Origin: a virus
Lineage: Duplodnaviria; Caudoviricetes
Length of the DNA: 35,616 bases
Virus record (IMG/VR): IMGVR_UViG_3300031519_000089
Coordinates: 1 to 35,616 of that record
Reading direction: 5' to 3' (one strand)
Positions 1 to 35,024 of the stretch are shown here, in pieces. Under the pieces are notes generated by a model, which had not been told where the DNA came from, ran no database searches, and saw nothing but the letters and a program-made list of their open reading frames with translations. Position 1 is the stretch's first letter. Each line of letters opens with the position of its first letter. A program made the translations under genes and the position numbers.

Positions 1-1105
1 CCCATACCCAGTACAGATCCTGCTCTGTTGCTGTGGATGTTTCACCTCTGTTGACTTTTAATCCTGTGTAGTTTGGCATACCACTGTTTGATGATATGTT
101 CCTGTTTAATTCTATAATATTGTCTTCTATGGAAAGTGTTGTTGTGTTGAATACTGTTTGAGTACCGTCCACTGTTAAATTTCCTTTTACCCTTAGGTCG
201 CCTACCGATGGAAGTTCTAATAATCCTGTGTCACCATCTAAAGTCATCAGTGTAACTGTTGATCCACCATCGTTGACTGTGAATATAATGTCTTTGTCCT
301 GTGTGGTCTGTGCTATGGTCAAGTTATCACTTGACAGACTCATAGTGATGTCTGATCCTGCACCTAAAATTAATCCTGTGTCGTTTGCAATAGTGAATGA
401 ACTGTTTGTAGAATCATTCTGATCTGATCGTAGATAGCTTGCCGCCGCAACTCCGCCCAATGCATCTGAGTCTGTTGCTGTTCCCCTAAATTTTGCTGAC
501 GTTACAGTTGAAGAAAGTGTTACACCCTGTGCCACACTTGAAAAACCTGCCGCAACTAGTGCCACTGCATTTGTTTCCGACGAGCTTGGTGTGAATGCTT
601 CAGCTGAAAGTATTGCAACTACTGTGTCGCTTTGTACAGCTTTCAATACAGACTTGTTTACACCAGAGGAATCCTGCACAACCTCTGACAACATAGCTGT
701 AACACCTGATCCTGCTATCGATGTTGGTCCTATTAGACTCCAAACTGATCCTGTGTAAACATATAACTGTGTGTTTACTGTGTCGAACCAAAGGTCTCCC
801 AATACAGCGTTTGTTGGCTGTGACGTCGAAGGGGTTGGAGAGCCAACAGGTTTAAATTTCGTACCTGTGTAGATATTAAGTTGTTTGTTAGTTTGGTCAA
901 ACCAAAGCTGACCTTGAATTTTGTTTGATGGTGCAGAAGTATAATTGAAGTTCTCTAATAGCTTGATAAAATTTTCATTTAGCTTCTCACCAAAACCTGC
1001 ATAACCTTTTCCAAAGAGTGCAAGATCCGTAGTGGTAACATCAAGTGTTCCGTCTGCCAGTGAGACAATTTTAGTCCCAAATGTGTTGTTAATCTCGTAA
1101 GCCAT
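1..1105 (-). CDS. Tail fibre/baseplate-anchored fibre protein, paralog 3 (partial, runs off the window start; absent from the ORF track)
   Basis: Translated by hand from ATG at 1105: MAYEINNTFGTKIVSLADGTLDVTTTDLALFGKGYAGFGEKLNENFIKLLENF...GQLWFDQ...GDLWFD..., open to base 2. Same N-terminal domain and internal VNDGG module as 4436..5824 and 5835..7337. Confidence 0.85.
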   Translation of the reverse strand, partial: MAYEINNTFGTKIVSLADGTLDVTTTDLALFGKGYAGFGEKLNENFIKLLENFNYTSAPSNKIQGQLWFDQTNKQLNIYTGTKFKPVGSPTPSTSQPTNAVLGDLWFDTVNTQLYVYTGSVWSLIGPTSIAGSGVTAMLSEVVQDSSGVNKSVLKAVQSDTVVAILSAEAFTPSSSETNAVALVAAGFSSVAQGVTLSSTVTSAKFRGTATDSDALGGVAAASYLRSDQNDSTNSSFTIANDTGLILGAGSDITMSLSSDNLTIAQTTQDKDIIFTVNDGGSTVTLMTLDGDTGLLELPSVGDLRVKGNLTVDGTQTVFNTTTLSIEDNIIELNRNISSNSGMPNYTGLKVNRGETSTATEQDLYWVW

Positions 1106-1111
1106 GATTTA

Positions 1112-1288
1112 TTAGTTTGATCCGTTGTCTCTAACTTCAATCAAAAAACTTACATCGCCTACTAACTTAATTAAAATAGTCGCTAGTTCAGGGGTCAGCA
1201 TTTGATCGATTTTTGTCTGCTCTTCTGCTGTCCAAACTGCTTCATGTGTTTCATTGATGTAGTCTGCTACTTGTTCTTTTGTTGCCAT
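1112..1288 (-). CDS. Hypothetical 58-aa acidic protein (absent from the ORF track)
   Basis: MATKEQVADYINETHEAVWTAEEQTKIDQMLTPELATILIKLVGDVSFLIEVRDNGSN*. Strong Shine-Dalgarno AAGGAG 9 nt upstream of the ATG; fills the gap between the flanking genes. Confidence 0.8.
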   Translation of the reverse strand: MATKEQVADYINETHEAVWTAEEQTKIDQMLTPELATILIKLVGDVSFLIEVRDNGSN

Positions 1289-1307
1289 TTAAATGTACTC
1301 CTTATGC

Positions 1308-1772
1308 TTATTTATTATGCTTTTCGATCTGCTCATCGTCTGAGATCCAGGTTAAATCCTTGGAGTATGAGCCGTCTAGATCCCTTAGGAACGTTTTGAC
1401 GTTGCTCTCTGTTAGCACCATATCGTGATATTTTTCATACCGTTTGTGCAGTGCTTGTTCTTTTGTGGCTGTGTAAACTAATTTTATACTCCTATCCTTT
1501 GCTAGTGCCATTATGCCGTCTATACACGATTTTAAACATTTATGTACTTTTCTAGGTTCTGATTCCTTGTCTGTGACTATCCATTCCATGAAAGCGAACT
1601 GTGTTCCTTCTCCAAAATAAATCCCCCCAGCACAAACGGGCTTTCCGTCTATCTCGACCATTATCCCATCTGGTGGTAGGCATTCCTTGGGTACTGTACC
1701 AAACTCCCAGTCAGTCCACCACTTGACCAGTGTGTCATAATCCTTGTCTCTGTCCCATGGTCTAACTAGCAT
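1308..1772 (-). CDS. GNAT-fold (acyltransferase-like) protein
   Basis: 154 aa with GNAT-like secondary-structure order: beta (MLVRPW), helix (DYDTLVKWW), beta-beta (IMVEIDGKPVCAGGIY), beta (AFMEWIVTD), helix, beta (IKLVYT), helix (ALHKRYEKY). The canonical acetyl-CoA R/QxxGxG/A motif is degenerate. Confidence 0.6.
   Translation of the reverse strand: MLVRPWDRDKDYDTLVKWWTDWEFGTVPKECLPPDGIMVEIDGKPVCAGGIYFGEGTQFAFMEWIVTDKESEPRKVHKCLKSCIDGIMALAKDRSIKLVYTATKEQALHKRYEKYHDMVLTESNVKTFLRDLDGSYSKDLTWISDDEQIEKHNK
1309..1316 (-). promoter_or_regulatory. Possible T4-type late promoter (AATAAATA)
   Basis: NATAAATA match overlapping the end of the GNAT-like gene, about 20 nt upstream of the 58-aa ORF. AT-rich context makes a chance match possible. 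Confidence 0.4.
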
Positions 1773-2355
1773 TTTTCTGTAATATCATTCTGTTAATGTT
1801 AAATGTTGATTCGAAACAGTAACGCACTGCTTCTGCCACTTCGTCTGCTGTCAACTTTGGCAAATCCTCCCAGAGCCCTTTCGTCATATCTGTATCTACC
1901 ACGTCCGGACATATGTCATATATTGATAATGGTTTAGAAAGTAACTCGTCCTGTAGTTCACTGATGTATTGTATCAGTTCCTTTTTTATTTCACAGTACT
2001 GCACATACTTAAACTTGTCCCACATCTTAAATTCACCATAATCCTCTCCCTCGTCTGTACCTGACGTGCTCGTGATCACTGCTACTTTCATCTTGTCAAA
2101 TGAATGTTGTCCGTATATCCTTTTGAGAAGGTTCAACTGTCCTCTGTCTGCGTGAGCATTCAATACCACGAAGTCACATCCTTTAATGCTTTCCATTATT
2201 TTTTCTTGATCGTGTATGATGTCAAAGCCGTTGCTCCTACTCATCCCGACTACTTCGTATTTCTTTTTTTGATACAGACTAGCTATGGCTTTACCAATTC
2301 CTTTGGTGTGTCCAATTATTGCTATCTTATTTTTGTTTTCTTGATTCATACACAT
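1762..2355 (-). CDS. Short-chain dehydrogenase/reductase (compact SDR)
   Basis: Rossmann motif IAIIGHTKGIGKAIA, VVLNA, catalytic-Ser region ITSTS, YxxxK (YCEIK) and CPDVVDTDMT (PGxVxTxM-like). The start may be 2349. Confidence 0.85.
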   Translation of the reverse strand: MCMNQENKNKIAIIGHTKGIGKAIASLYQKKKYEVVGMSRSNGFDIIHDQEKIMESIKGCDFVVLNAHADRGQLNLLKRIYGQHSFDKMKVAVITSTSGTDEGEDYGEFKMWDKFKYVQYCEIKKELIQYISELQDELLSKPLSIYDICPDVVDTDMTKGLWEDLPKLTADEVAEAVRYCFESTFNINRMILQKNAS

Positions 2356-2995
2356 CCACTAGATTCTCCAACCCTTCAAAACATTCTGAATAGTGTTGGT
2401 AATATTCTTCAAACTTCTCTTTAGTGTATAGTGATTCTTTGAAAAAGTCAATTAGTAATGTTGTTCTCTCACCTGGATTATTATTAAAACCATTGTGTAC
2501 CTGTATGTCTGGTTGAAAAATAAATGCTTCACCTGTTTTCCAAGTGTACAGTTCTTGTTTCCTAGTTTCTAAATTCATCACATGCATACCACTATCTGTT
2601 CCACCGCCGTCGTCTAAACACAGTTGGTATCTCCAGCCGCCCTCGTTGTCTGTGTGATTACCAATCTTTGTGTCTGGGCCTACTGTCATTATTGCCACGT
2701 TAGTTTTGTAGGGAAATTTTCTCAGTATCGAATACAACATAGGGTAATCATTAAATGACTGTCCTTCGTGCTTACCGGACTGTATACCTAATGCTCGCCA
2801 TTGTCCATTCACATAATCACCCGACTTGTCATCAAAGTCGTCTGGTAATCCCCTAACGCTATCTGAAAAATCTTCAGGATCTAAAAATATTTTGTTGGGC
2901 TGTGAATCAAACTCGTGTTTAATCTCTATGAAATGTTTTTCTAGCTTTTGAAAACACTCTCCTTGCTGTCCGTGGTAATATGATTTATCAAGCAT
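2327..2995 (-). CDS. Aspartyl/asparaginyl beta-hydroxylase family 2OG-Fe(II) dioxygenase
   Basis: HxD (IGNHTD), RYQLCL, WKTGEAFIF, distal His (VHNGFN) and 2OG-binding Arg (ERTTLLIDF) in the AspH/LpxO-family order. Confidence 0.85.
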   Translation of the reverse strand: MLDKSYYHGQQGECFQKLEKHFIEIKHEFDSQPNKIFLDPEDFSDSVRGLPDDFDDKSGDYVNGQWRALGIQSGKHEGQSFNDYPMLYSILRKFPYKTNVAIMTVGPDTKIGNHTDNEGGWRYQLCLDDGGGTDSGMHVMNLETRKQELYTWKTGEAFIFQPDIQVHNGFNNNPGERTTLLIDFFKESLYTKEKFEEYYQHYSECFEGLENLVDVYESRKQK

Positions 2996-4433
2996 TTAGT
3001 ATATTAACATTTTTATCATGTATTTGTCTATCATGATCTTGCCAATTACTAAAAAATTGTTCGCCGTGGTTAGTTAATTCTTGCTGTTCACTTAATTCAA
3101 AGTAGTCTGTAAACTCTGTGTTGTTTATTATGATTCTTCTGTTTTCGTTACCAAATACGTACACTATCACTTCGTCATCGCCCAGTGATGTACCTAGTCT
3201 ACTATCTTCTACTCTAGTCCATCCACCGTCTTCTTTGACCATGTGTGTACCTGATACCTGAATTCCGTTGTAGTCGTATAAGTTGTCAATCAAGAACTTA
3301 CCTGTTGCGAACACCTTGCCACCGACTGAAACTGTGTCACCTATGTCCACTTGCTCGACCGGTTTCAATGACCCGTCTGCCATAGAGATCATTGTGCCTG
3401 CTATGAAACAACCACCGCCACCACCCGATCCACCCGAACCTGAACTTGATCCACCTGATGAGTCTCCAAACCCTGCCGCTGTTGATGAGAATGTTATGCC
3501 TGAGTTGAACAATGCCTTCCAGTCACCACTGACTTTAACATATCCTGCTGAAATTTCTTGCCATACTCCTGATATTTTTTGATATATGTTTGTGACATCT
3601 TGCCACACTCCACTAACCTTTGTGCTGGCCTGCACTCCTACGTTGAAAATAATTATTGCAAGACCGTTTCCACCTGTTCCCGATGGACCTGCTCCTACTG
3701 CCACTCCTGAATCGTAATATTGAACTCCGCTTAATTCTAAAGAAACAACACCCGGTGCTGTCCCTGAACCATTAGATTCTGTTCCACCTGATGGTGTTGT
3801 GTTTGATCCCGAATATCCACCGGTTCCGTTAGTGTCACCTGATCCACCATTTCCTGATTTTCCGCCATCGGCTCCACCACCGCCAGCTCCACCACCGCCT
3901 CCATCACCCGAGTGATCCTTGCCTTCTTCACCTAGTGTGCCTGGTGTGTTACCTGTTGCATTATTTGAGTTTATGCCTGCTCCGCCGTTTCCACTTCTAC
4001 CTGATCCGCCGCCGCCTCCACCACCACCTGCTACTGCAACTGCTGATCCATCTACAAATACTGTTGTGGCTCCACCTGCTCCGCCACCTGCTCCTGAATA
4101 TGGTTGTGGTCCTGCGTTACCGCCGTTTCCACCTGAAAATCCTGTCTTACCTTTTCCGTTGTTTCCGCCAGGGGCACCGCCACCTGATCCGCCACCTGCA
4201 CCGCCACCGCCCACTGCTATTTCGAGAGTGTCACCGACGTTAGATGTTAATGAAAAACTTGTTTTTGTGACATAGTGTCCTGCGGCTCCTACGCCACCAG
4301 GTCCACCTGCGTCTGCACCTCCACCACCGCCTGCACCACCCCATAGGTACATGTCTATAGAAGTTGAACCTGCTGGTATGCTTACCTGTTGAAGTGTTCC
4401 TGAATACTGGAATTTTTTAATTACTGTAGGCAT
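2988..4433 (-). CDS. Glycine-rich adhesin-like tail protein with C-terminal Hint autoprocessing domain
   Basis: N-terminal Gly-rich domain (LWGGAGGGGG...LEIAVGGGG...VAVAGGGGGGG), three KxSGxW hairpin repeats and a Gly/Ser linker. Then GGGGG|CFIAGTMISMADGSLKPVEQVDIGD (Hint block A, Cys342), VSGTH (block B) and VYVFGNENRRIIINN...FTDY. Confidence 0.85.
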   Translation of the reverse strand: MPTVIKKFQYSGTLQQVSIPAGSTSIDMYLWGGAGGGGGADAGGPGGVGAAGHYVTKTSFSLTSNVGDTLEIAVGGGGAGGGSGGGAPGGNNGKGKTGFSGGNGGNAGPQPYSGAGGGAGGATTVFVDGSAVAVAGGGGGGGGSGRSGNGGAGINSNNATGNTPGTLGEEGKDHSGDGGGGGAGGGGADGGKSGNGGSGDTNGTGGYSGSNTTPSGGTESNGSGTAPGVVSLELSGVQYYDSGVAVGAGPSGTGGNGLAIIIFNVGVQASTKVSGVWQDVTNIYQKISGVWQEISAGYVKVSGDWKALFNSGITFSSTAAGFGDSSGGSSSGSGGSGGGGGCFIAGTMISMADGSLKPVEQVDIGDTVSVGGKVFATGKFLIDNLYDYNGIQVSGTHMVKEDGGWTRVEDSRLGTSLGDDEVIVYVFGNENRRIIINNTEFTDYFELSEQQELTNHGEQFFSNWQDHDRQIHDKNVNILNA

Positions 4434-4435
4434 GG

Positions 4436-5824
4436 TTATGCCTCATACTTGAACCAGAAGTCGCCATCGCTTCCGCCACTTGGATCTGATGTCGAAACTG
4501 TTTTTGCTGAACCGCCCCAAAGTGATCCAAAAGCAACTACCTGTCCAATACTTGGAACAGAAGTGTCTGAACCATCTGATGTTGTAATTGCCGATCCAAC
4601 TGCAGATAATTCTACTCCTGCTACTGTGAATATACCTGATGAGTCTGTTTTTATAACAGCACCTTGAGATGTTGCACCGTTTGTAGTTGCAACGGAATCG
4701 GTAATAACTTGAGAATAGTTTGTATTTTCACCTGCCATCCATCTGTTTGTAGTTGTCTCATAGAATAATCTAGCGTCGTCTGTGTCTCCTGTCTCAACTA
4801 TAAGTCCTGCGTCTGCTTCTCCGTTACCTGAGTTTACTTTGATAAACGCATCGTCGTATGTTGTGATGTTTGAAACTGAACTATTGTACTCTCCTGTGAT
4901 GTTTAAGTTACCTGTAATAGTAACATCACCTGTTAATCCTATTGCTCCAGTGGATCCTGTTAGAGTAATTGGAGTTTTTGTAACTCCACCGTCATTTACT
5001 GTGACTTTTAAATCTTTATCTTGCGATGTCTGTGCAATCGTTACATCGTTGCTTGAAACTGATACTGTTAGTTCTTGTGCATCACCAACAATTAATCCTG
5101 TGTCATTGTCGATCGTCAGTGCACCTGTTGTTGTGTCTGCCGCATCTGATCTTAGGAAGTTTCCACCTGCGATAACTGTGCCTGACGTGTTTGATGTTCC
5201 TGATACGTCAATAGCAGAGGCCTGTGTATTTGTTCCATCAAACACAGCACCTAGTGTTGAGTTTAATGTTAGTCCTGCTTTGACTGAAGCGAATCCTGTC
5301 TGTGTCACACTTGGTGTGAAAGTCGATGCTGAAAGTATTGCTACTCTTGTGTTACCTGCATACATTGATGAAACAACACTTGTGCCTCCTGAGTGTGCTA
5401 ATGTTTCTATAAACCAACCGGATAATGTTTGCGATTTAGTATAAACCGGACCTACAAGTAACCAAGCTGTTCCTGTGTACACATAAAGTTGATCATCATC
5501 TGAATCTGTCCAAAGGTCTCCAGCTGATGGTGTAGTCGGTGCAGTTGACTGAGATGTTGATCCGCCTGTTGGTTCAAAACTTGAGCCGTTGTATACTTTT
5601 AAATTATTTGTGTTGTTATCAAACCACAACTCACCTTTCAAAGGTGCTGTTGGGGCCGATGTTGATGATGAATTTTCTAATAGTTTTAGAAGGTTCTCAT
5701 TTAATAATTCACCAAATCCCGAATAACTCTTTCCAAAAAGTGTTAAACTTGTTGAATTATCAATAGTACCATCTGTTATGGTAGCAACTGTTGTTCCGTC
5801 TGTTCTGTTAATTGTGTACGCCAT
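4436..5824 (-). CDS. Tail fibre protein, paralog 2
   Basis: 462 aa, Thr/Ser/Gly-rich. MAYTIN...GKSYSGFGE...ENLLKLLEN...GELWFD N-terminal domain; GDLWTD repeat; ends in the fibre-type module VSTSDPSGGSDGDFWFKY. Confidence 0.8.
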   Translation of the reverse strand: MAYTINRTDGTTVATITDGTIDNSTSLTLFGKSYSGFGELLNENLLKLLENSSSTSAPTAPLKGELWFDNNTNNLKVYNGSSFEPTGGSTSQSTAPTTPSAGDLWTDSDDDQLYVYTGTAWLLVGPVYTKSQTLSGWFIETLAHSGGTSVVSSMYAGNTRVAILSASTFTPSVTQTGFASVKAGLTLNSTLGAVFDGTNTQASAIDVSGTSNTSGTVIAGGNFLRSDAADTTTGALTIDNDTGLIVGDAQELTVSVSSNDVTIAQTSQDKDLKVTVNDGGVTKTPITLTGSTGAIGLTGDVTITGNLNITGEYNSSVSNITTYDDAFIKVNSGNGEADAGLIVETGDTDDARLFYETTTNRWMAGENTNYSQVITDSVATTNGATSQGAVIKTDSSGIFTVAGVELSAVGSAITTSDGSDTSVPSIGQVVAFGSLWGGSAKTVSTSDPSGGSDGDFWFKYEA

Positions 5825-5831
5825 TTGCTTA

Positions 5832-5839
5832 TATTTATA
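5832..5839 (-). promoter_or_regulatory. T4-type late promoter TATAAATA
   Basis: Perfect T4 late consensus 7 nt upstream of the ATG at 5824. The 10-mer CTATAAATAT is identical to the one at 31001-31010. Confidence 0.7.
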
Positions 5840-7337
5840 GTCTTCCTACACTTATTAAAATTACGTTTTCACCTGCGTCTGTTTTATTTTCCATTGCTTT
5901 TCCCACTATAGAACCTAGCACGGGTGTGAGTGACTTTCTGGCACAACCCGGATGTTCACTGCTAGTTGTTAAAAGATCACCTTTTGATATAACACCGTGT
6001 ACTTTACACTTAACTTTTCCCACAAGTGCTACTGCCTGTCCTTCTGACTCATCGTTCATCAAATATGCAGGATTTTCACTTATGACTCCTGCCACGGCAG
6101 TGTCGTGTGCTGTTGTTGATTGTGTAATTTCTTTATCACCGCCAAACACCACAACTGTTCCTACTTCGTACTCCGAGTCTGAAGTATATTTCTCAGCCAA
6201 GTCAGCGTATTGTGCCGATGTTGCTTTGGCAAAGACTGTGTTGTACTTGTAGCTTGATGTACCTATATCGTATGTTGTGTTTGCCGATGGTCTAATTAAT
6301 GTTGATATCAGCGTTCCTGTCATTGTTCCACCTGTTAGTGGCAAGTCTAAACTTGATGTACCTGTTACGTTTCCTGTAACTGCACCTGTTAGTGGTCCTG
6401 CGAAAGCTGTCGCTGTAACTGTACCTACTACTTGTACCTTTGTGCTTGGTGTTGTTGTTCCTATTCCTATAGATGATGATCCACCGTCTATTGTCATCAC
6501 TGTTGTGGTTGTACCACCATCATTAACCTTGAAAGTAATGTCTGTGTCTGCTATTACGTTTGATATAATAACACCTGTGCCGTCTACTGTTATCGATAAG
6601 TCACTGTCTGCACCGACTTGTAGTCCTGCATCGTTTATTACTCCTAATGTTCCTGACGTAGTGTCATTCGTATTTGACTTTAAGAAAGTACTTGCCAATG
6701 CACCACCTAGTGCATCTGCATCTGAGGCTGTTCCTTGGAATTTTAAATCTGATATTGCCGTTGAAAGTGTTATACCTTTCTTGACTGTTGCGAAACCTGA
6801 TATTGAAGTCTTGGGTGTGAATGTGTCTTCTGACACTATTGCAATCAAGTTACCGTCATTGAATAATTTTGTTATGTTCTGTGTTGCATCTGATGAGTCC
6901 AGTATGCTGTCATACGTGAAACCGTTTGTGTTTCCTGTTGTTCCCGGTGGTCCAACTAAAACACTTGCACTGCCGTTGAAAAAATAAAGTTGTCCTGTAT
7001 CAGAATCAATCCATAGGTCACCCTGTCCCATAGTGTTTGGAGCAATCGACTGATAAGGTGCATTACCTGTAACTGGAACAAAACTAGATCCGTTGTAAAC
7101 TTTTAATCTACTGGCACTCGAATCATAATAAAGTTGTCCTTGTATGGGTTTTGTTGGTTCTGTACTGTTTGAAAAGTTTTCTAATATGTGTAAAAAATTC
7201 TCTGCTATGGATTCTCCATATCCTGCATATCCTTTTCCTATAAACGAAAGATCAGTCTGCGTGTTTACAACACCATCCTGCACTGTGTAGGCATTTGGTG
7301 ATGCCGCACTGTTTGTCTTGTTTACTGTGTATGCCAT
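5835..7337 (-). CDS. Tail fibre protein, paralog 1, with C-terminal peptidase G2-like intramolecular chaperone
   Basis: 500 aa with the same N-terminal domain and an IGIGTTTP fibre repeat. C-terminal YADLAEKY...GTVVVFGG...VAGVISENPAYLMN...VALVGKVKCKV...KGDLL resembles the phi29 gp12-type autocleaving chaperone. Confidence 0.8.
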   Translation of the reverse strand: MAYTVNKTNSAASPNAYTVQDGVVNTQTDLSFIGKGYAGYGESIAENFLHILENFSNSTEPTKPIQGQLYYDSSASRLKVYNGSSFVPVTGNAPYQSIAPNTMGQGDLWIDSDTGQLYFFNGSASVLVGPPGTTGNTNGFTYDSILDSSDATQNITKLFNDGNLIAIVSEDTFTPKTSISGFATVKKGITLSTAISDLKFQGTASDADALGGALASTFLKSNTNDTTSGTLGVINDAGLQVGADSDLSITVDGTGVIISNVIADTDITFKVNDGGTTTTVMTIDGGSSSIGIGTTTPSTKVQVVGTVTATAFAGPLTGAVTGNVTGTSSLDLPLTGGTMTGTLISTLIRPSANTTYDIGTSSYKYNTVFAKATSAQYADLAEKYTSDSEYEVGTVVVFGGDKEITQSTTAHDTAVAGVISENPAYLMNDESEGQAVALVGKVKCKVHGVISKGDLLTTSSEHPGCARKSLTPVLGSIVGKAMENKTDAGENVILISVGRL

Positions 7338-7340
7338 TTA

Positions 7341-8066
7341 TTAGTACCCTGTGTTAGCACCTGAAGTAGTTCCGCTGATTGTGTTTGATGTTGACAGTGC
7401 AGTTGAACTTGTTTCAGTGAATGTTGTTAATGATTGTATCCTTAGGGTGTAGTCAATCTGTATAAGTCTGTTCAGAGATTTCTGTACCGGGTGGAATACA
7501 ACGTGTGTCAACAGTTTGTTTGTTGATCCGTTCTCTGTTCCTTCCCAACTTTTTAAACCCAGTTCGTCAAAAACATAGTCTCCATTGAAATCTGTCGTGT
7601 TGTCAAAAGCGGCCTGTCCTGTGGGCTCACCATAATCCAAAGTACAAGTCACGACGATGTCAGTGTACTTGTTACCTGCTGTATGTCTTACTTCCATTTT
7701 GTTTCTTGTTGTGTCTTTGTTAGTAGACGAGTTGTCATCTACTACTTTATAATATGTTTGGTTGTACAAACTTGCGTTTGAACCTGTTGAGTTTGGTGTA
7801 AGGTACGTGATTATACCAGTTGGATCAACTGATGTCCCTCCATTTCCTAGTGCCATCTCGTGTACAAATCCTGTAGTTTTATTTGCTAATGAATTTGCCA
7901 ATGCCTGAGACATATTTTCGTAGTGGATTGCGTTTCTTTTGTCCACTATTACTTCGCCCGTTTCTGGATCAAATATCTTGATATGACCCGTCATCATAAC
8001 ACCTGTGTTATCCTGGGGCTTCTTGTTCTCTTCTTTTGATTCTTGTGGTTTATTGTCCTGTGTCAT
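7341..8066 (-). CDS. Virion structural protein (baseplate/fibre-attachment-like)
   Basis: 241 aa beta-rich ORF (GHIKIFD...VDKRNAIH...MALGNGG...FDELGL...LLTHVVFHPVQKS...IDYTLRI) lying between the wedge and fibre genes. Function inferred from context. Confidence 0.6.
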   Translation of the reverse strand: MTQDNKPQESKEENKKPQDNTGVMMTGHIKIFDPETGEVIVDKRNAIHYENMSQALANSLANKTTGFVHEMALGNGGTSVDPTGIITYLTPNSTGSNASLYNQTYYKVVDDNSSTNKDTTRNKMEVRHTAGNKYTDIVVTCTLDYGEPTGQAAFDNTTDFNGDYVFDELGLKSWEGTENGSTNKLLTHVVFHPVQKSLNRLIQIDYTLRIQSLTTFTETSSTALSTSNTISGTTSGANTGY

Positions 8067-24579: not shown

Positions 24580-24990
24580 TTAAGATAGACGCAGGAGTTG
24601 ATTTTCATCAAAGCCAAATCTTAGTTTTTCAGTAATGTTGAGCGGAACATAGGTTATAGTGGCCTGTATGGCTATACCATGTTGCTCTTGTGTCAGTATT
24701 ATTTCCTGTGCGGCTATACGGGGATCAGCATTTAAATTTGCTGTTATGTCTTCCACTATTGCATCTTTAAGCTGTTCTGTTAATGGTTCAAAAATAGCAT
24801 CGTATATCATGGTGCCAAATTCCGGGTTCTCCACCCTCTCGCCCTTACGCACAGATAACCTGTTGATCAGGTCCTGTTTGGCACACTCGAAGTCATACTG
24901 TTTGAAGTTCTTCTTGTCCGCTCTAGAACTGAACCCTTTGAAAGTTATCCCACCTGCTCCTGTGCTTGATGAATTATTGCCGTATGCCAT
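24580..24990 (-). CDS. gp25: Baseplate wedge subunit, gp25/GPW family
   Basis: KQDLINRLSVRKGERVENPEFGTMIYDAIFEP...ADPRI is the gp25 signature. Confidence 0.92.
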   Translation of the reverse strand: MAYGNNSSSTGAGGITFKGFSSRADKKNFKQYDFECAKQDLINRLSVRKGERVENPEFGTMIYDAIFEPLTEQLKDAIVEDITANLNADPRIAAQEIILTQEQHGIAIQATITYVPLNITEKLRFGFDENQLLRLS

Positions 24991-27500
24991 TAGTTTAATC
25001 TCCTAAATTCAACATCCACCTTGCTGTAATCTACCATGTAGAATCCTGTGTCTGTCATTTGTCTTGCCCATGGAACTTCCTGTGCCATCACGCCCTCGTA
25101 TGTTCCATCAGTATGTTTGTATTTAAACGAATATATGTTGATGCCCGAGGGTGACTTGCCAACTAATTGTATGTCTTCCTTCAATCTGACGTCACTAAAA
25201 AATCCTCCACCTGAGAAGAAACCTGTGACAGCAGATACGGCTTTCGTGGCATATGATCCAACTGATGTCATTAAACTGGAGTATCCCGATGGTCGAAAGG
25301 TGGGACCGTAACCACTGCTTTTGAAGAAGCCTTGAGCTCTATTCACTATACTTGATACCTGTGACATGTTTGTGATGTTGCCTGCCATTACATTCTTGTA
25401 CACGTTTGTGACTGTGCTTATGCTGTCTGTAACTGATCCTAAGTTTCCTATGTTTAGATTTCCTGTTATGCCCTTTACATTTTTCAACACGTCATTTAGA
25501 CCTGTGCCATACACGTTTCCACTTGTCCCAAATTCATCTAAAACGTTTCCTCCGCCACTGCTACCACCTAGTGAGAACAACTCCCCGACATTGTTTACGA
25601 ACACGTTGTCCTTAAACAACTTCACTGCACCGTCTCCGGATATGCTTTCTATTACTTGATTGCTCAGCTGTTTAGTTAAGTTGTTCTTAACACTGTCTAT
25701 TGTGTCGTTGATGTCGAAGTTCTTCAACTTGTTGGATATACTTTCTATCTCTTTGAATTTTCCTTTGGCTTGGTTTATCACATTGAAGGTTTCGTCGTAT
25801 TTTTCTCCATACTCTGTTACGAACTTTCTAGCCTTGGTAGCATTTGTTGAATTTTTCATATATGTTCTAAGTGCAGTTTCTGTGTCTGCCTGGAACTGTC
25901 CAAGCCTGATGCTCTCTACTGTGGAAAGCCTGTTCTGTTGTTCTAGGTATTCCACCGTGCCTGGTGTGCTGGACAGCCTGTACCACTGCTTGGTGTCCAG
26001 ACGATCGCCCAGTGGATCCGAGCTTGGTTGCTGTCCCTCTGATGTGAATCCTCTGAATCTCGGCATTGGTTCGTGTGTAACGAATCTGTGTACTGTGGTC
26101 TTTGTTTTCTTTGTAAAAGATTGTAGTGGTGCTATGCCCTTCTTGGCCAGTTCTACGTCTCCTTCATCACGTGGTGTCATTCCTACCTTGTCCGTGGTTA
26201 GCCATCCTGGCCCCCAAGTCGAACTAGCACTTGTAGAATTAAAGTGTACCTGTGCTCCTGCTAGGTGTATCTGTCCTCCGGCTCCGTGAAGTTGCGTTCC
26301 TCCTGTGAATGAGCTTATACCGTCCCTAGCAAAATCCCTAATAGAACCTGCCTGAGAGCTGTTGAATATTCCCTTGTCTCCGATGTTAAACATAGCTTCT
26401 GCCGATTGTACCATGTCTGTCTCGGCCGCCATCCTTATAGATCCCTTGGCGTGCATGTTTATGTTGGCATCACTGTGTAGATTGAAGTCACCTTGTGTCC
26501 TCATGTTTATTCCACCCACTCCCGAGTAAATGTCTATCTTTCCCTCTGAATTCATTTCTATCCATGCATTACCTGAACCATTGGCTATGTACACAACTCC
26601 TGCTGTGTCGTTCATCAACAATTGGTGTCCCGAAGCTGTCCTTAATCTTGTCAGCTGGTTTGATCCGTCTATTGCACCATCGTCCATTGTAAACGTGTGT
26701 CCTGGAAATCTGTCTACCGATGTTGGTCTTTTGTTTAAACCCACGGGTGGTTTTTTTGAATCTGGTCTTATCCTACCTGGGGTGCTTATACCAAACACCT
26801 GACTGGGAGTTTCTCTCCTAGCAGATGACGTAGTAGTTCCCCTATCCGGGTCTGCTATCAAACCCTGTTTTAACAATTGGTCTGCTAATATATCGTTGAC
26901 TGGGTACTTCCATTGGAATTGACCTAACGTTGTTGAAGATACTTTCTCGTCTGTTATCTGCCTGTTAAGTTCTCCGGCCGGTAAAAAATCTGTGCCATAT
27001 GAATTTTGTTTGGTCTCTCCTCCCAGTTCCGATCCCGAGGCTGGTAGTGATGTATTTGTCGACGAACCATGTCCAGGTATGCTGTTGTTAGTGAATGGAT
27101 CTTGCACACATCCTATCCAAAATGCATTGTCCCTGGTCTGATCGCCCTTGGCGAATATTACTAATACTGTGGTGTCTATGTCAGGTGGTACTGCCCACAT
27201 TCCGTAGGCGTGTTGTGTATCTTTGTAACTGTATGGATCTGTCTTAGAAACTGTGCTTAGGCTCTTGGCACCATAGAACGGTGACAGGTACTGACACCAT
27301 GTCAGCTGATCTGGTATAGGATCCAATGTCCCTGTCAGTGCTGGAATGTTCACTCCTAGTCTTCCCATCCTCATCGGATCGTTTGACAATTTGACTGTCG
27401 CGAGGTACGGACCTGCGTCCTTGCTAAGATACTTCTCATTGAAGTCTTTCTGGTTGTCCTGTGAATCTACGTATCCTCTGTGATCATTATAATCTGCCAT
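24990..27500 (-). CDS. gp5: Baseplate hub spike, T4 gp5/VgrG-like, with long C-terminal extension and peptidase S74-like domain
   Basis: OB-fold DPMRMGRLGVNIP...WCQY...PPDIDTTVLVIF...FWIGC; beta-helix GHTFTMDD...RLRTASGHQLLMND...GNAWIEM...GKIDIYS; THEP motif; C-terminal FSDVRLKEDI...IYSFKY...GVMAQEV...VDYSKV. Confidence 0.85.
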   Translation of the reverse strand: MADYNDHRGYVDSQDNQKDFNEKYLSKDAGPYLATVKLSNDPMRMGRLGVNIPALTGTLDPIPDQLTWCQYLSPFYGAKSLSTVSKTDPYSYKDTQHAYGMWAVPPDIDTTVLVIFAKGDQTRDNAFWIGCVQDPFTNNSIPGHGSSTNTSLPASGSELGGETKQNSYGTDFLPAGELNRQITDEKVSSTTLGQFQWKYPVNDILADQLLKQGLIADPDRGTTTSSARRETPSQVFGISTPGRIRPDSKKPPVGLNKRPTSVDRFPGHTFTMDDGAIDGSNQLTRLRTASGHQLLMNDTAGVVYIANGSGNAWIEMNSEGKIDIYSGVGGINMRTQGDFNLHSDANINMHAKGSIRMAAETDMVQSAEAMFNIGDKGIFNSSQAGSIRDFARDGISSFTGGTQLHGAGGQIHLAGAQVHFNSTSASSTWGPGWLTTDKVGMTPRDEGDVELAKKGIAPLQSFTKKTKTTVHRFVTHEPMPRFRGFTSEGQQPSSDPLGDRLDTKQWYRLSSTPGTVEYLEQQNRLSTVESIRLGQFQADTETALRTYMKNSTNATKARKFVTEYGEKYDETFNVINQAKGKFKEIESISNKLKNFDINDTIDSVKNNLTKQLSNQVIESISGDGAVKLFKDNVFVNNVGELFSLGGSSGGGNVLDEFGTSGNVYGTGLNDVLKNVKGITGNLNIGNLGSVTDSISTVTNVYKNVMAGNITNMSQVSSIVNRAQGFFKSSGYGPTFRPSGYSSLMTSVGSYATKAVSAVTGFFSGGGFFSDVRLKEDIQLVGKSPSGINIYSFKYKHTDGTYEGVMAQEVPWARQMTDTGFYMVDYSKVDVEFRRLN

Positions 27501-31001: not shown

Positions 31002-31009
31002 TATTTATA
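31002..31009 (-). promoter_or_regulatory. T4-type late promoter TATAAATA for the baseplate operon
   Basis: Perfect consensus 44 nt upstream of the ATG at 30957, with an AAGGA Shine-Dalgarno-like sequence in between. Confidence 0.75.
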
Positions 31010-31101: not shown

Positions 31102-32088
31102 ATGAAAAGAGTAAAGTACCTAAACAACAGAGATCTATTGGCACAAATACATGCCAGCAAGAACACGTATTGTTCTTATTTGACTCCCGAGGACGCTCGA
31201 TATGATGTTATTGTGCCAAACCTGAAGAAGATCAATGCTAATGCAGTTGCACAAGCAAGAAAAAACAAGTCCAAGAGGCTAACACAGGAAGCGTGGCAAC
31301 TGGCCAAGGACAGTGGAAATAAAAAGATAAAATTATCTGACTACACCGTCAGCACAAGAAAAATAGCAAAGACAGATTTAATTTTTAGGGTCATGATGTT
31401 CGATCACATACCCTTAGACGATTTAAGGAAGAAAAATCCCAAACAAACAGCGGATCATCACAGCAAGGTAAATTTCCCTCCTTTCCAACACTATAAATTT
31501 GATGAGAAAAATAAACTTATTTGTGTGGGTAAATCACACTGGGTAGGCGGAATGGAGAATGGACACTTTTCATGTGATCACGGTAAGATAACAAATTCAC
31601 TTGCAATGATGTTCATGAAACTCTGTGAACGTTACGGGACAAGGGCAAACTGGAGAGGCTACACTTACAACGATGAGATGCAGTCGCAGGCGCTGATGCA
31701 ACTGTCACAGATTGGTTTGCAATTTGATGAATCGAAATCGGAGAATCCGTTTGCATATTACACCGCGGCGATAACAAACAGTTTCACAAGAATATTGAAT
31801 ATCGAAAAGAAGAATCAAAATATTAGAGACGACTTGTTAGAGTACAACAACATGATGCCCAGTTACACAAGACAGAATGAAAATACTACATCAACTCCGC
31901 AGTACAAGAAAAGAATGGAAACTGTACATGGAGACGTGCACCAAGTTAATAAATCCGGTCTTGCGAAACTGAATAAGATATTAAAGAAAAAAGGCAAGAT
32001 TGATATGAAAGACGACTTGGATACAGTCAAATTCAAAAACAAGATCGATATGACTAATCATAAACCAACAGTTAAAAAGAAATGGTAA
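31102..32088 (+). CDS. gp55: Late-transcription sigma factor, T4 gp55-like
   Basis: YLNNRDLL N-terminus, NWRGYTYNDEM and FDESKSENPFAYYTAAITNSF.R.L..EKK; upstream of gp47/gp46 as in T4; GGAG Shine-Dalgarno. Confidence 0.8.
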   Translation: MKRVKYLNNRDLLAQIHASKNTYCSYLTPEDARYDVIVPNLKKINANAVAQARKNKSKRLTQEAWQLAKDSGNKKIKLSDYTVSTRKIAKTDLIFRVMMFDHIPLDDLRKKNPKQTADHHSKVNFPPFQHYKFDEKNKLICVGKSHWVGGMENGHFSCDHGKITNSLAMMFMKLCERYGTRANWRGYTYNDEMQSQALMQLSQIGLQFDESKSENPFAYYTAAITNSFTRILNIEKKNQNIRDDLLEYNNMMPSYTRQNENTTSTPQYKKRMETVHGDVHQVNKSGLAKLNKILKKKGKIDMKDDLDTVKFKNKIDMTNHKPTVKKKW

Positions 32089-32091
32089 CAA

Positions 32092-33114
32092 ATGGCACTA
32101 TTTAAAAAAGTAGCTTGTTTCACGGACATACATTTTGGAATGAAGGGAAATTCCAGAGTACACAATGACGACTGTGAAGCATTTATAAAGTGGTTCATAG
32201 AACAATCCAAAGCACAAGGATGTGAGACTTGTATATTTCTAGGTGACTGGCATCATCATAGATCAGCAACAAACGTTTCCACAATGAACTACACAGTATC
32301 TAATATGGAGCGGCTGGCCGCGGCATTTGAGAAAGTGTATGTTATTATGGGTAACCATGATTTATATTACAGAGAAAAAAGAGAAATTAATTCCATGGAA
32401 TTTATTAGGAACATACCAAACATAGTTCTTGTTAATCAATGGATCGAGGACGAAGACACAGCAATTATTCCGTGGATTGTAGAAGACGAATGGAAGAAAA
32501 TTGCAAAGATGAAAAAGAAATATGTTTTTGGACATTTTGAACTGCCATACTTTAAAATGAACGCTATGGTCGAGATGCCCGACGTTGGTGGAATACAAAC
32601 TGATCATTTCGCAGGTTGTGAAAAGGTTTGGTCAGGACACTTCCACAAGAGACAAGTAATGAAGAATGTGACTTACATGGGTAATGCGTTTCCCCACAAT
32701 TACGCAGATGCATGGGATGACGAAAGAGGAATGATGGTTATAGAGTGGGGTAGTGAGCCCAAGTATATAAATTGGCCAGATATGCCAAGATATAGAACAA
32801 TAAAGATATCACAGTTACTAGAGGATCCAGACAAACACTTACTACCTAAAATGTATGTAAGGGTTACACTAGACATTAAAATTTCATACGAAGAAGCGAA
32901 TTTTGTAAGAGAAACATTCATAGACAAATACAGTTTGAGAGAACTACAACTGATACCAGAACAAGTGGACAATGCACAACAACCAACCGTTGAGGTGCAG
33001 AAGTTCGACAGCGTGGATCAGATTGTTATCTCACAACTGCAAGGTGTTGATTCAGAAACTTATGACAAGAACATACTGACTGCAATTTATAGGGATCTGG
33101 ATGTCAAGAATTAG
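32092..33114 (+). CDS. gp47: Recombination endonuclease subunit, gp47 (Mre11/SbcD-like)
   Basis: Metallophosphoesterase motifs DIHFG, GDWHH, GNHD, GHFE, SGHFH. Confidence 0.93.
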   Translation: MALFKKVACFTDIHFGMKGNSRVHNDDCEAFIKWFIEQSKAQGCETCIFLGDWHHHRSATNVSTMNYTVSNMERLAAAFEKVYVIMGNHDLYYREKREINSMEFIRNIPNIVLVNQWIEDEDTAIIPWIVEDEWKKIAKMKKKYVFGHFELPYFKMNAMVEMPDVGGIQTDHFAGCEKVWSGHFHKRQVMKNVTYMGNAFPHNYADAWDDERGMMVIEWGSEPKYINWPDMPRYRTIKISQLLEDPDKHLLPKMYVRVTLDIKISYEEANFVRETFIDKYSLRELQLIPEQVDNAQQPTVEVQKFDSVDQIVISQLQGVDSETYDKNILTAIYRDLDVKN

Positions 33115-33262
33115 TAAAAAGAAATTTTGGAATATTTTAAAGAAGGGTCCTGCTAAGACTTGGAATACAAACATATCGGATAAAGATACTCCTCAAAGTA
33201 TATGGATCTCCGGTTACAAGAGATGGCGTAAATTAATGGAAAAAGTAAATGCTAACAATTAA
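33101..33262 (+). CDS. Hypothetical 53-aa basic, Trp-rich protein (absent from the ORF track)
   Basis: MSRISKKKFWNILKKGPAKTWNTNISDKDTPQSIWISGYKRWRKLMEKVNANN*. Overlaps the gp47 end and the gp46 start by 14 nt each and fills the gap between them. Confidence 0.6.
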   Translation: MSRISKKKFWNILKKGPAKTWNTNISDKDTPQSIWISGYKRWRKLMEKVNANN

Positions 33263-35024
33263 AGAACTTACAGTAAAAAACTTTATGAGTGTGGGTAACC
33301 AGGCCCAAGCAATTAATTTTGATGATAAAAGTTTAGTGCTGGTTATCGGAGAGAACATGGATCTAGGTGGTGACGATGCAGGTGCTAGAAACGGTACAGG
33401 TAAAACTACTATTATCAATGCACTATCTTATGTGTTCTTTGGTGAAGCACTAACAAACATTAGAAGAGATAATCTTGTAAACAAAACTAACGGAAAAGGC
33501 ATGATAGTAAGTGTTAAGTTTATCAAGAACAACATAACCTACACTATTGAGCGAGGCAGAAAGCCACAAATATTTAAATTCTATGCCAACAATATTGAAC
33601 AGAATATTGAAAGCAACGAAGCACAAGGTGAAAACAGAGAAACACAACAAGAGATAAACAAGCTAATGGGAATGACCCATGCCATGTTTAAAAACATAAT
33701 TGCATTGAACACTTACACTCAACCTTTCTTATCAACCAAAGCAAACGAACAAAGAGAGATCATTGAACAGTTGCTTGGTATAACACTGCTATCTGAAAAG
33801 GCCGACCTTTTAAAAGAGAAGCAGAAAGCAACAAAACTACAACTAACAGAAGAAAAGATGAGAATAGATCAGGTAGTTGCATCAAATAAAAAGATAGAAG
33901 AATCGATCGAAAGTTTAAAAATAAGATCTAGTGCTTGGGCCAGTCAAAAAGAAGGCGACATAGCAAGTTTCCAAGAAGCAATAGCAGAACTGGACAAAGT
34001 GGACATCGTAAAAGAACTAGATGCACACAAGAGACTGTCCAAACACAACGAGATGCAAACTGCATTAAGAAGTTTAGAGAAGGAGAAAGCGTATCACGAG
34101 GATTCGTTGACCAAGGCAGAAAGCACAGTAGGAAAGACAGAGAAGGATCTAGAGTTTGCGGAAGCGGCCAAATGTCCCACCTGTGAACAAGAACTGCATG
34201 ACGACAAACACGAACATTTAGTTGGAAAACTGAAGACCACACTAACAGAGTCAAAAGAATACACAGAGAAACTTGTAGGCGACCTTGCAAAAATACAGCA
34301 GGATGTAGATAAAATAGGAGACCTAGGCAACATACCAGACACGTATTACGACACAATGGACGAAGCATACAATCACAAAGGTTCATTGCAGGATCTGAAA
34401 CGTCAGTTAGAACAGACTGAGAAAAAAGAGGACGTGTATGCAGAACAGGTTGAAGAATTAAACAAAAGTGCAATACAAAAAGTAGATTATGTAGTAGCAA
34501 ACGATTTAGAAGATTTACACAGACACCAAGATTTCTTGTATAAACTGTTAACAGCAAAAGATTCATTTATAAGAACAAGGATCATAGAACAAAACTTAAC
34601 ATACTTGAATCAGAGACTGGCACACTATCTGGGCAAGGTTAAACTACCGCACTCGGTAACTTTCCAAAGTGACTTGTCTGTGCAGATCGAGGAACTGGGC
34701 AGAGAACTAGACTTCGACAATTTAAGCAGAGGTGAGAGAAATAGATTGATATTGAGTTTGAGTTGGGCATTCAGAGATGTTTGGGAAAGTCTTTATCAAC
34801 AGATCAACTTGTTGTTCATTGACGAATTGATCGATGCTGGTATGGATATATCAGGTGTTGAGAGTTCCATGGCAGTTTTAAAAGACATGAGTAGGACACA
34901 GAAAAAGAATATTTTTTTAATATCTCACAAGGACGAATTGGTAAGCAGGGTAAACTCTGTGTTGAAAGTAGTAAAAGAGAATGGTTTTACCAACTATGCC
35001 AATGACGTTGACATAATTGTTTAA
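33249..35024 (+). CDS. gp46: Recombination endonuclease ATPase subunit, gp46 (Rad50/SbcC-like)
   Basis: Walker A NGTGKTT, coiled coils, zinc hook CPTC, signature LSRGE, Walker B LLFIDE, H-loop ISH. Confidence 0.95.
   Translation: MLTIKELTVKNFMSVGNQAQAINFDDKSLVLVIGENMDLGGDDAGARNGTGKTTIINALSYVFFGEALTNIRRDNLVNKTNGKGMIVSVKFIKNNITYTIERGRKPQIFKFYANNIEQNIESNEAQGENRETQQEINKLMGMTHAMFKNIIALNTYTQPFLSTKANEQREIIEQLLGITLLSEKADLLKEKQKATKLQLTEEKMRIDQVVASNKKIEESIESLKIRSSAWASQKEGDIASFQEAIAELDKVDIVKELDAHKRLSKHNEMQTALRSLEKEKAYHEDSLTKAESTVGKTEKDLEFAEAAKCPTCEQELHDDKHEHLVGKLKTTLTESKEYTEKLVGDLAKIQQDVDKIGDLGNIPDTYYDTMDEAYNHKGSLQDLKRQLEQTEKKEDVYAEQVEELNKSAIQKVDYVVANDLEDLHRHQDFLYKLLTAKDSFIRTRIIEQNLTYLNQRLAHYLGKVKLPHSVTFQSDLSVQIEELGRELDFDNLSRGERNRLILSLSWAFRDVWESLYQQINLLFIDELIDAGMDISGVESSMAVLKDMSRTQKKNIFLISHKDELVSRVNSVLKVVKENGFTNYANDVDIIV

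Follow-up and report, generated by a model that had tools for sequence, protein, structure and literature searches.

A 35,616-nucleotide (nt) stretch of viral DNA (IMG/VR record IMGVR_UViG_3300031519_000089; hereafter, the window) encodes a glycine-rich protein that ends in a Hint domain and is followed by genes for an AspH-family hydroxylase, an SDR oxidoreductase and a GNAT-fold protein. We found that this Hint–enzyme cassette is real, selected and portable. By analogy with Hedgehog, we tentatively propose that the enzymes make an acylated, hydroxylated small molecule and that the Hint attaches it to Gly341 of its carrier, a reading to which we give slightly less than an even chance. The source is an uncultured marine RaK2/Atu_ph07-like jumbo phage, and the window, a 35.6-kb IMG/VR fragment with an estimated completeness of about 10%, holds its baseplate and tail operon.

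The 481-aa Gly-rich/Hint protein (2988–4433, minus strand) comprises a carrier part (residues 1–341; 3411–4433), a Hint core (residues 342–445; 3099–3410) and a short tail (residues 446–481; 2988–3098), with the junction at Gly341|Cys342. Behind it on the same strand lie a 222-aa Fe(II)/2-oxoglutarate hydroxylase of the AspH/LpxO/OlsC family (AspH; 2327–2995), a 197-aa short SDR oxidoreductase (1762–2355, with an alternative start at 2349) and a 154-aa GNAT-fold protein of the phrog_17252 family (1308–1772). A first-pass annotation had described these four genes and a 58-aa small protein (1112–1288) as a five-gene system that modifies an adhesin or tail fibres. All five open reading frames (ORFs) are indeed on the minus strand at the positions it gave, and the first four genes overlap as it said (by 8 nt between Hint and AspH, 29 nt between AspH and SDR, and 11 nt between SDR and GNAT), with a gap of 19 nt between GNAT and the small ORF. 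The cassette held up, with other boundaries: the unit is Hint plus GNAT with optional AspH and SDR, and it is tied to the Hint rather than to the adhesin. Residues 1–265 of the carrier are 35% Gly and lead into three short Trp-containing repeats and a Gly/Ser linker. The label of (tail-associated) adhesin is best kept as putative, the Gly_rich_2 match (E 6e-5) being sub-threshold and the protein having no solved relative; a PDB sequence search with the carrier returned nothing useful, and a tblastn search of cultured phages gave a single 47-residue match.

A predicted model of the Hint, built from 47 sequences (pLDDT 89), ends in two helices and matches BIL domains (2lwy, Z 12.0; 6tmm, Z 11.5) and Hedgehog (1at0, Z 10.5; rmsd 2.0 over 102 aligned residues); with Z scores of 10–12 against BILs, inteins and Hedgehog, it belongs to the HINT superfamily. 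Its motifs are Cys342, a block-B S-G-T-His397 and a C-terminal F-T-Asp443-Y-F that replaces the intein His-Asn. The Cys, His, Asp and Tyr are invariant in 47/47 aligned sequences, the F[TS]DYF ending recurs in 121/121 Hint alleles, and Gly stands at position −1 of the Cys in 119/125. Tyr or Phe thus occupies the position of the splicing nucleophile, and because F-T-D-Y-F takes the place of His-Asn-Cys/Ser/Thr, canonical splicing is not expected and the thioester would meet water or an outside nucleophile. In the tail, helices are predicted at residues 447–456 and 459–480, with F461, V476 and N480 invariant and L453 nearly so; the alignment to Vint 8r2c (range 3..135) extends into it, at an rmsd of 5.0. 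From this predicted anatomy, we infer that the tail is a candidate adduct-recognition region.

Several established labels were tried for the Hint. That of intein was rejected, given the F[TS]DYF ending without His-Asn in 121/121 alleles and the mere 36-aa tail that follows, as was that of A-type BIL, whose conserved C-terminal His-Asn (according to the accessible part of PMC7765530) is absent. The B-type BIL model Hint_2 (PF13403) scored below its cut-off (13.8 versus 28.4 bits, E 0.08) and covered residues 342–370 (29 aa). As to Hog domains, the phage protein has [SA]GxH and F-T-D-Y where they have TxxH and the SCY Cys (C400); a helix-loop-helix tail is predicted at the place of the Hog sterol- or adduct-recognition region (SRR or ARR), a range that 1at0 lacks in the alignment.

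The window AspH matches PF05118 (E 1.5e-10; 41.6 bits against a cut-off of 22.6), and its H114-x-D116...H167 motif and 2-oxoglutarate-binding R177 are intact and invariant in aligned relatives; a PDB sequence search with it returned nothing useful. Assignment to the NCBIfam LpxO and OlsC equivalogs was rejected (14.2 versus 500 bits, E 0.017, and 17.7 versus 450 bits, E 0.0016, respectively). The SDR matches PF00106 (E 1.2e-7; 31.9 versus 26.6 bits), with GHTxGIG and Y120-xxx-K124 intact and invariant in 11/11 sequences; the NCBIfam FabG equivalog was rejected (32.7 versus 332 bits), and a PDB sequence search found generic SDRs only. The window copy of the GNAT has no Pfam or NCBIfam match, and PF00583 is matched by 10 of 143 family members at E ≤ 0.05. 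A model predicted from those 143 sequences (pLDDT 96.5) nevertheless has the GNAT fold, aligning with RimI 5isv (Z 16.4, rmsd 1.8, 128 aligned residues), with Ard1/NatA close behind. The protein bears a C-terminal extension, which is missing at two loci (L107/L108). A complex prediction of the Hint domain with the GNAT scored 0.00 and carries no weight either way. Distant phrog_17252 members adjoin structural genes in Bacteroidota podophages, where a Hint was neither annotated nor flagged in scans (two annotated records only).

We surveyed the jumbo-phage site with anchors outside the cassette, in 41 of 46 loci (the distant or partial L065–L069 were left out) and in the 29 closest of 80, the other 51 of which hold no such cassette within 10 kb. 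Of these 70 loci, 15 showed no Gly-rich gene in the visible stretch and 5 broke off before the site was complete; the remaining 50 reduce to 38 distinct carriers. Twenty-eight carriers have the complete Hint, AspH, SDR and GNAT set and one has Hint and GNAT, whereas nine end in a different domain, the ICT cap, and have none of the enzymes (Fisher p 6e-9 for the association of cap and enzymes, kinship uncorrected). The carrier stays in place while its C-terminal cap is swapped among relatives: a tree built from 42 carrier N-parts requires four switches of cap type, three of which are forced by supported branches.

The coupling was equally evident when the cassette genes themselves were used as anchors. 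A Hint-anchored census of 155 loci (the best 80 of 196 and the best 80 of 200 matches) yielded 90 distinct alleles: 49 with GNAT only, 34 with AspH, SDR and GNAT, 2 with a second AspH, and 5 cut by contig ends. A GNAT therefore follows in 85/90, and no intact Hint without a GNAT was seen among the 90 alleles. Of 94 distinct alleles in an AspH-anchored census (151 loci, including the best 80 of 319 in one set), 87 have a Hint directly upstream; the rest are five with less than 250 nt of upstream sequence, one with 265 nt, and L540, in which the last 14 Hint residues alone are present. For the SDR, the best 80 of 151 matches were taken and 53 loci displayed, the other 27 being close-clade matches on contigs already counted. 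Of these 53, 17 belong to the close clade and are part of the cassette; the other 36 are distant, and no Hint, no GNAT and no AspH of the cassette kind lies within 3.5 kb of them. The GNATs, which were ordered on a quick tree, carry an M-E-W motif in all 81 SDR-bearing cassettes and in 20 GNAT-only cassettes; in the 24 with M-Y-G or M-W-G, the SDR is absent.

The first-pass annotation had named independent assortment of enzymes and Hint, as in a generic hypervariable island, as the outcome that would speak against a functional unit. This was not borne out: a GNAT accompanies the Hint in 29/29 site carriers, any of the enzymes accompanies the ICT cap in 0/9, and 85/90 Hint alleles have their GNAT. 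Membership of the small protein was not upheld either. Its ORF occurs with and without the cassette, behind Hint-capped and ICT-capped carriers alike, is absent from the T4-like and podophage cassettes described below, and has its own TAAATA motif in 37/41 loci; it is a conserved neighbour outside the cassette. It has no family match and is tandemly duplicated in L041, L101, L135, L197 and L203.

The ICT cap is a helical domain of about 110–150 aa, in which a Gly-rich linker leads into [IV][IV]CT, with invariant C, T, D, GY and WA. It has no Pfam or NCBIfam match. CFI-box-CTERM, considered as a label for it, was not supported: 0/10 members matched such an NCBIfam model at E ≤ 1. Examples are L036:11405–11797, L154:4979–5371, L211:15031–15909, L571:3813–5450 (HTVC033P gp76) and HMO-2011 gp49. 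In jumbo phages and podophages, the ICT cap and Hint plus GNAT alternate at the same linkers. Cultured HTVC033P gp76 and HMO-2011 gp49 carry the ICT cap and have no GNAT gene annotated behind them, homologues of gp76 from uncultured phages have Hint plus GNAT at the ICT position, and in L154, Hint plus GNAT is inserted ahead of an orphan ICT domain. The ICT domain is possibly a second self-processing cap. A second Hint, ending in His-Asn-Lys, stands directly before the cap (either this Hint or ICT) in L048:10421–12484, L092, L152, L163, L168, L174, L186 and L203. Elsewhere in the window, a gp5-like hub protein (24990–27500) ends in a Gly linker and a Peptidase_S74 cap (PF13884), and the first fibre-like gene (5835–7337) has a weak Peptidase_G2 cap (PF11962), so that three kinds of removable C-terminal caps occur in one operon.

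The complete order Hint–AspH–SDR–GNAT is found in three unrelated groups of marine phages (jumbo, T4-like and podophage), with AspH identities of 43–55% across them. In the T4-like loci L311–L317 (AspH 43–48% identical), the cassette splits VrlC and is followed by TATAAATA, which we take to be the T4-type late motif, and the C-terminal half of VrlC. L483 is the only podophage with a complete cassette, on a pilot-like protein; L479 was counted as T4-like. The Hint plus GNAT core also caps LysM/lysozyme proteins, VrlC, and portal-adjacent and pilot-like podophage proteins. The podophage carriers lie near HMO-2011-type and HTVC033P capsids (79.5% and 74.8%) and occur in HTVC023P-like phages as well. 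In a 76-row Hint tree, four changes are required to account for AspH presence, and the AspH-bearing rows form a single clade in 0% of 200 bootstrap trees. In some T4-like cassettes (L312:5153–5887, L314, L474 and L476–L478), SDR and GNAT are separated by an additional AspH paralogue, which is divergent (PF05118 E 5e-11); the first AspH of L478 is broken, and it is the second paralogue that represents L478 in the AspH tree.

One locus lies in a Micavibrio metagenome-assembled genome (MAG; L554:4611–5871), beside mltG and fabF. Its protein has this Hint family, a Gly linker and a start that, judged by eye, resembles a signal peptide, and the gene is followed by a canonical GNAT of another subfamily, without a signal peptide. 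Among 301 Micavibrio-order genomes searched, 9 had any match and none held a second copy of this Hint type. Other genomes of this order hold many large, secreted-looking, Hint-capped proteins (L556–L570). We rejected a further locus labelled as a Verrucomicrobia MAG (L553) as host evidence, since it has the same phage layout and is probably a binned phage contig.

Median dN/dS was 0.06 for AspH and 0.14 for the SDR (medians of 0.06–0.14 from 32–111 unsaturated pairs of 150 sampled per gene). Across 56 jumbo-phage cassettes, AspH divergence tracked that of the Hint tail and core (Spearman 0.68 and 0.66) more closely than that of the overlapping SDR (0.37) or the carrier (0.28); the Hint tail or core correlated with carrier parts at 0.08–0.15.

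Under the attachment reading introduced above, which takes up the first-pass annotation's idea of a small molecule ligated at Gly341, the Hint would, from what is known of the family, turn the Gly341–Cys342 bond into a thioester by an N–S acyl shift, and its helical tail would hand the thioester to a small nucleophile. The GNAT would acylate this nucleophile and the hydroxylase and reductase would tailor it, giving a virion protein with a C-terminal chemical tag that may serve in anchoring or in contact with the host surface. The enzymes go with the Hint whatever the carrier, so that the simplest substrate for them is either the nucleophile that the Hint uses or the Hint itself; and because the unrelated carriers have only a low-complexity linker in common, carrier residues are an unlikely substrate. 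The pairing of an SDR with an oxygenase of the LpxO/OlsC family points, by analogy, to a small molecule: in the accessible account of ornithine lipids, these are built by an N-acyltransferase and a hydroxylase of AspH's family (PMC12971839). In its anatomy, the predicted Hint tail, with its invariant hydrophobic residues, resembles the published Hedgehog SRR, in which a helix-loop-helix presents cholesterol (PMC9163320). At L554, a product that diffuses or is held in the membrane would suit the combination of an apparently exported Hint with a cytoplasmic GNAT that serves it. The broader version of this idea, a mobile, self-contained tagging kit, consisting of a Hint that inserts into glycine-rich linkers and up to four nucleophile-making enzymes, that yields a variably hydroxylated acyl adduct, seems to us a real possibility, short of probable.

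A number of observations weigh against attachment of a small molecule. The closest folds to the GNAT, with many ties, are protein N-terminal acetyltransferases, and the usual acyl-CoA loop of GNATs, R/Q-x-x-G-x-G/A, is absent from its alignment. In the Hint, Ser or Ala replaces the block-B Thr, and we found no counterpart to Hedgehog D303, no residue-level superposition having been made. AspH and SDR are dispensable, 49/85 complete cassettes being GNAT-only, and L514 has AspH without SDR. Action of AspH on the tail would predict the correlation between the two just as well, and that correlation comes from adjacent genes and non-independent pairs. The signal-peptide argument comes from one MAG locus whose start was judged by eye, and in 8 other Micavibrio-order genomes the Hints are of other types and no GNAT was seen close to them. 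A tblastn search of 50,697 cultured-phage records with the Hint gave two 27-residue matches only, and so no cultured phage that carries it. Finally, where a His-Asn Hint lies upstream (L048, L092, L152 and several podophages), it could release the carrier before an adduct is attached.

Some of these observations bring up an alternative that we consider unlikely, though it fares best among the rivals: the Hint protein would be a self-removing cap for folding or assembly and would itself be the target of the enzymes. The GNAT would acylate a Lys of the tail or the N-terminal Cys that cleavage exposes, and so make cleavage irreversible or timed, AspH would hydroxylate an Asp or Asn of the tail or active site (D443, N480), and the SDR would work on that hydroxyl. 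The top fold matches of the GNAT (RimI, Ard1, NatA and NatC) suit this proposal, as do the close tracking of the Hint tail by AspH and the Asp/Asn protein hydroxylation for which the AspH family is named. So does the company that the Hint keeps: at the same linker, Hint plus GNAT takes the place of ICT, which is likewise a Cys-led cap, and autoproteolytic caps end other genes of the window (PF13884 and, weakly, PF11962). However, three enzymes are a costly way to finish a discarded fragment, and there is little known precedent for protein side chains as SDR substrates. Many other Hint domains function without a GNAT nearby, and L554 parts an apparently exported Hint from a GNAT that lacks a signal peptide.

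It is less probable still that the Hint joins the carrier to a macromolecule (an envelope lipid or glycan, or a virion protein) and that the enzymes prepare this target, for instance by hydroxylating a host lipid in the manner of LpxO or OlsC and acylating it; the modification of a host receptor, which the first-pass annotation had offered as its alternative, would fall under this reading. The carriers, being tail, baseplate or probably ejected proteins, come into contact with the envelope, those of podophages have glycine-zipper ends, and AspH has a weak NCBIfam likeness to OlsC and LpxO. Those scores nevertheless lie far under the cut-offs given above, and a module that modifies the host need neither overlap the end of the Hint gene nor be lost together with the Hint. 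Moreover, the podophage relatives infect SAR11 and SAR116, orders without OlsB according to the accessible part of PMC12971839.

We regard as very improbable that the enzymes directly modify residues of the adhesin or fibres, the second option of the first-pass annotation, with the Hint being incidental. The late-operon location among fibre-like genes suits it, and in podophages the GNAT genes that adjoin those for internal virion proteins act as morphogenesis factors according to PMC4819975 and PMC6775973; yet the identical enzyme set sits on unrelated carriers, carriers and fibres persist without enzymes where the cap is ICT, and the correlation of AspH with the carrier is weak (0.28). Hitch-hiking in a hypervariable island without a functional link is largely refuted and slightly more improbable: marine phages often carry SDR and AspH-type genes (the 36 distant SDR loci here; PMC7029224) and overlapping genes travel together, but gene order is kept across three phage groups at 43–55% AspH identity, dN/dS is low (0.06–0.14), the cassette partners accompany close-clade SDRs and not distant ones, and L554 has a different GNAT subfamily behind the same Hint.

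How does the cassette compare with known systems? To our knowledge, the hosts of these phages have no sterol supply, unlike the Hedgehog setting. Likeness to Hedgehog and Hog proteins (1at0; PMC9163320 and PMC2362128, as far as accessible) lies in the Gly|Cys junction, the block-B His, the lack of His-Asn and the helix-loop-helix, which is predicted here. The phage Hint differs in having Asp at the position of the Hedgehog SCY Cys and in the enzyme genes fixed to its gene, of which Hedgehog has none; the phage adduct is a proposal. BILs of types A and B (2lwy and 6tmm) give the best fold scores and share variable, non-conserved carrier proteins and N-terminal cleavage without canonical splicing, here predicted; by contrast, the phage Hint has a conserved helical tail, no His-Asn, only a weak Hint_2 match, and fixed GNAT, AspH and SDR partners that the accessible text of PMC7765530 does not describe for BILs. 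Vint (8r2c) likewise combines a Hint with a C-terminal extension, and the alignment reaches the tail, but at an rmsd of 5.0, and the phage protein has neither a VWA domain nor a Vint Pfam match. The IVP-A-type GNATs of podophages (T7 gp13 and SIO1/cobavirus pc40; PMC4819975 and PMC6775973, in their available parts) are also small GNAT-fold genes in a virion operon, whereas the cassette GNAT is Hint-coupled, occurs in myoviruses too and has a C-terminal extension, which is absent from L107/L108; its profile matched T7 gp13 with a probability of 2%, in a comparison made insensitive by the one-sequence target. Tailoring of ornithine lipids and lipid A (OlsB, OlsC/OlsD and LpxO) resembles the cassette in applying an N-acyltransferase and a 2-oxoglutarate hydroxylase of the same family to one small lipid (accessible portion of PMC12971839), yet the cassette lacks an O-acyltransferase, is tied to a Hint on a virion protein and scores far below the OlsC and LpxO cut-offs.

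The surroundings of the cassette fit a virion operon. Window PHROG matches include baseplate wedge, hub and virion proteins, and a 241-aa gene (7341–8066) is 53–56% identical to genes of Sinorhizobium phage Phosso and Agrobacterium phage Atu_ph07, with matches to RaK2/PBECO4-like phages too. Flanking the cassette on the minus strand are an upstream fibre-like virion gene (4436–5824), which served as a census anchor, and a downstream fibre-like gene that is cut by the contig end. Their paralogy, already noted in the first-pass annotation, is clear (44% over 372 aa, E 8e-83), although the left frame begins at 2 (2–1105) and not at 1; their PHROG matches are unknown or virion structural, plus one weak 'tail fiber' match. 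The annotation had also placed a perfect late promoter at 5832. The motif there, TATAAATA (5832–5839, minus strand), is by itself at chance level (2 found in the window versus 1.98 expected), whereas its TAAATA core stands directly ahead of the same upstream gene in 41/41 related loci, as read off the printed sequences; a scripted count over the 41 loci gave 16 TATAAATA and 6 AATAAATA. Scans for sigma-70 promoters and terminators gave chance-level results only.

Metagenomes with window DNA come from marine, seawater and brine samples. Three DNA runs (X1–X3) give reads in 30/30 bins of the window, and no clean AspH–SDR deletion was seen in their reads; RNA runs gave only short fragments, mostly from relatives of the window phage. 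Farther along the window, a divergent plus-strand block (31102–35024) behind the second TATAAATA (31002–31009) holds a 328-aa gene, a phosphoesterase-like 340-aa gene and an SbcC/Rad50-like gene (phrog_77). Beyond the left end of the window, L036 (13657–19036) and most relatives have a conserved block after the last fibre-like gene, with products of about 320, 105, 250, 266, 100 and 299 aa, which leads to a twitch-domain radical SAM gene (NF033640, E 2e-99). In L208:12233–15510, two fibre-like paralogues have no Gly-rich gene, cassette or small ORF between them.

Our literature search, which lay outside most subscription papers and supplements, found no paper describing a phage Hint with a GNAT or hydroxylase, and the accessible parts of PMC2362128, PMC7824862, PMC7029224, PMC7765530, PMC13552765, PMC8954989 and PMC12487129 do not describe the cassette. 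A Hint with dedicated modifying enzymes is undescribed in the literature searched, even if those enzymes act on the Hint itself. The parts are small, about 2.1 kb from the Hint start, and natural drop-out variants exist; a Hint able to ligate a small molecule other than a sterol would serve as a tool for protein labelling. If small-molecule attachment is correct, the versions with GNAT only, with AspH, with AspH and SDR, and with two AspH enzymes would make different tags, and the cassette would offer a substrate lead for the unexplained GNAT genes in phage virion operons. The adduct would be the first non-sterol one for a Hog-like domain, a question open since 'adduct recognition regions' were named (PMC2362128, as far as accessible). 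Phages would then chemically cap their own structural proteins by means of a Hint domain, which would place Hedgehog-type ligation, with its own biosynthetic pathway, outside eukaryotes and constitute a new class of virion modification.

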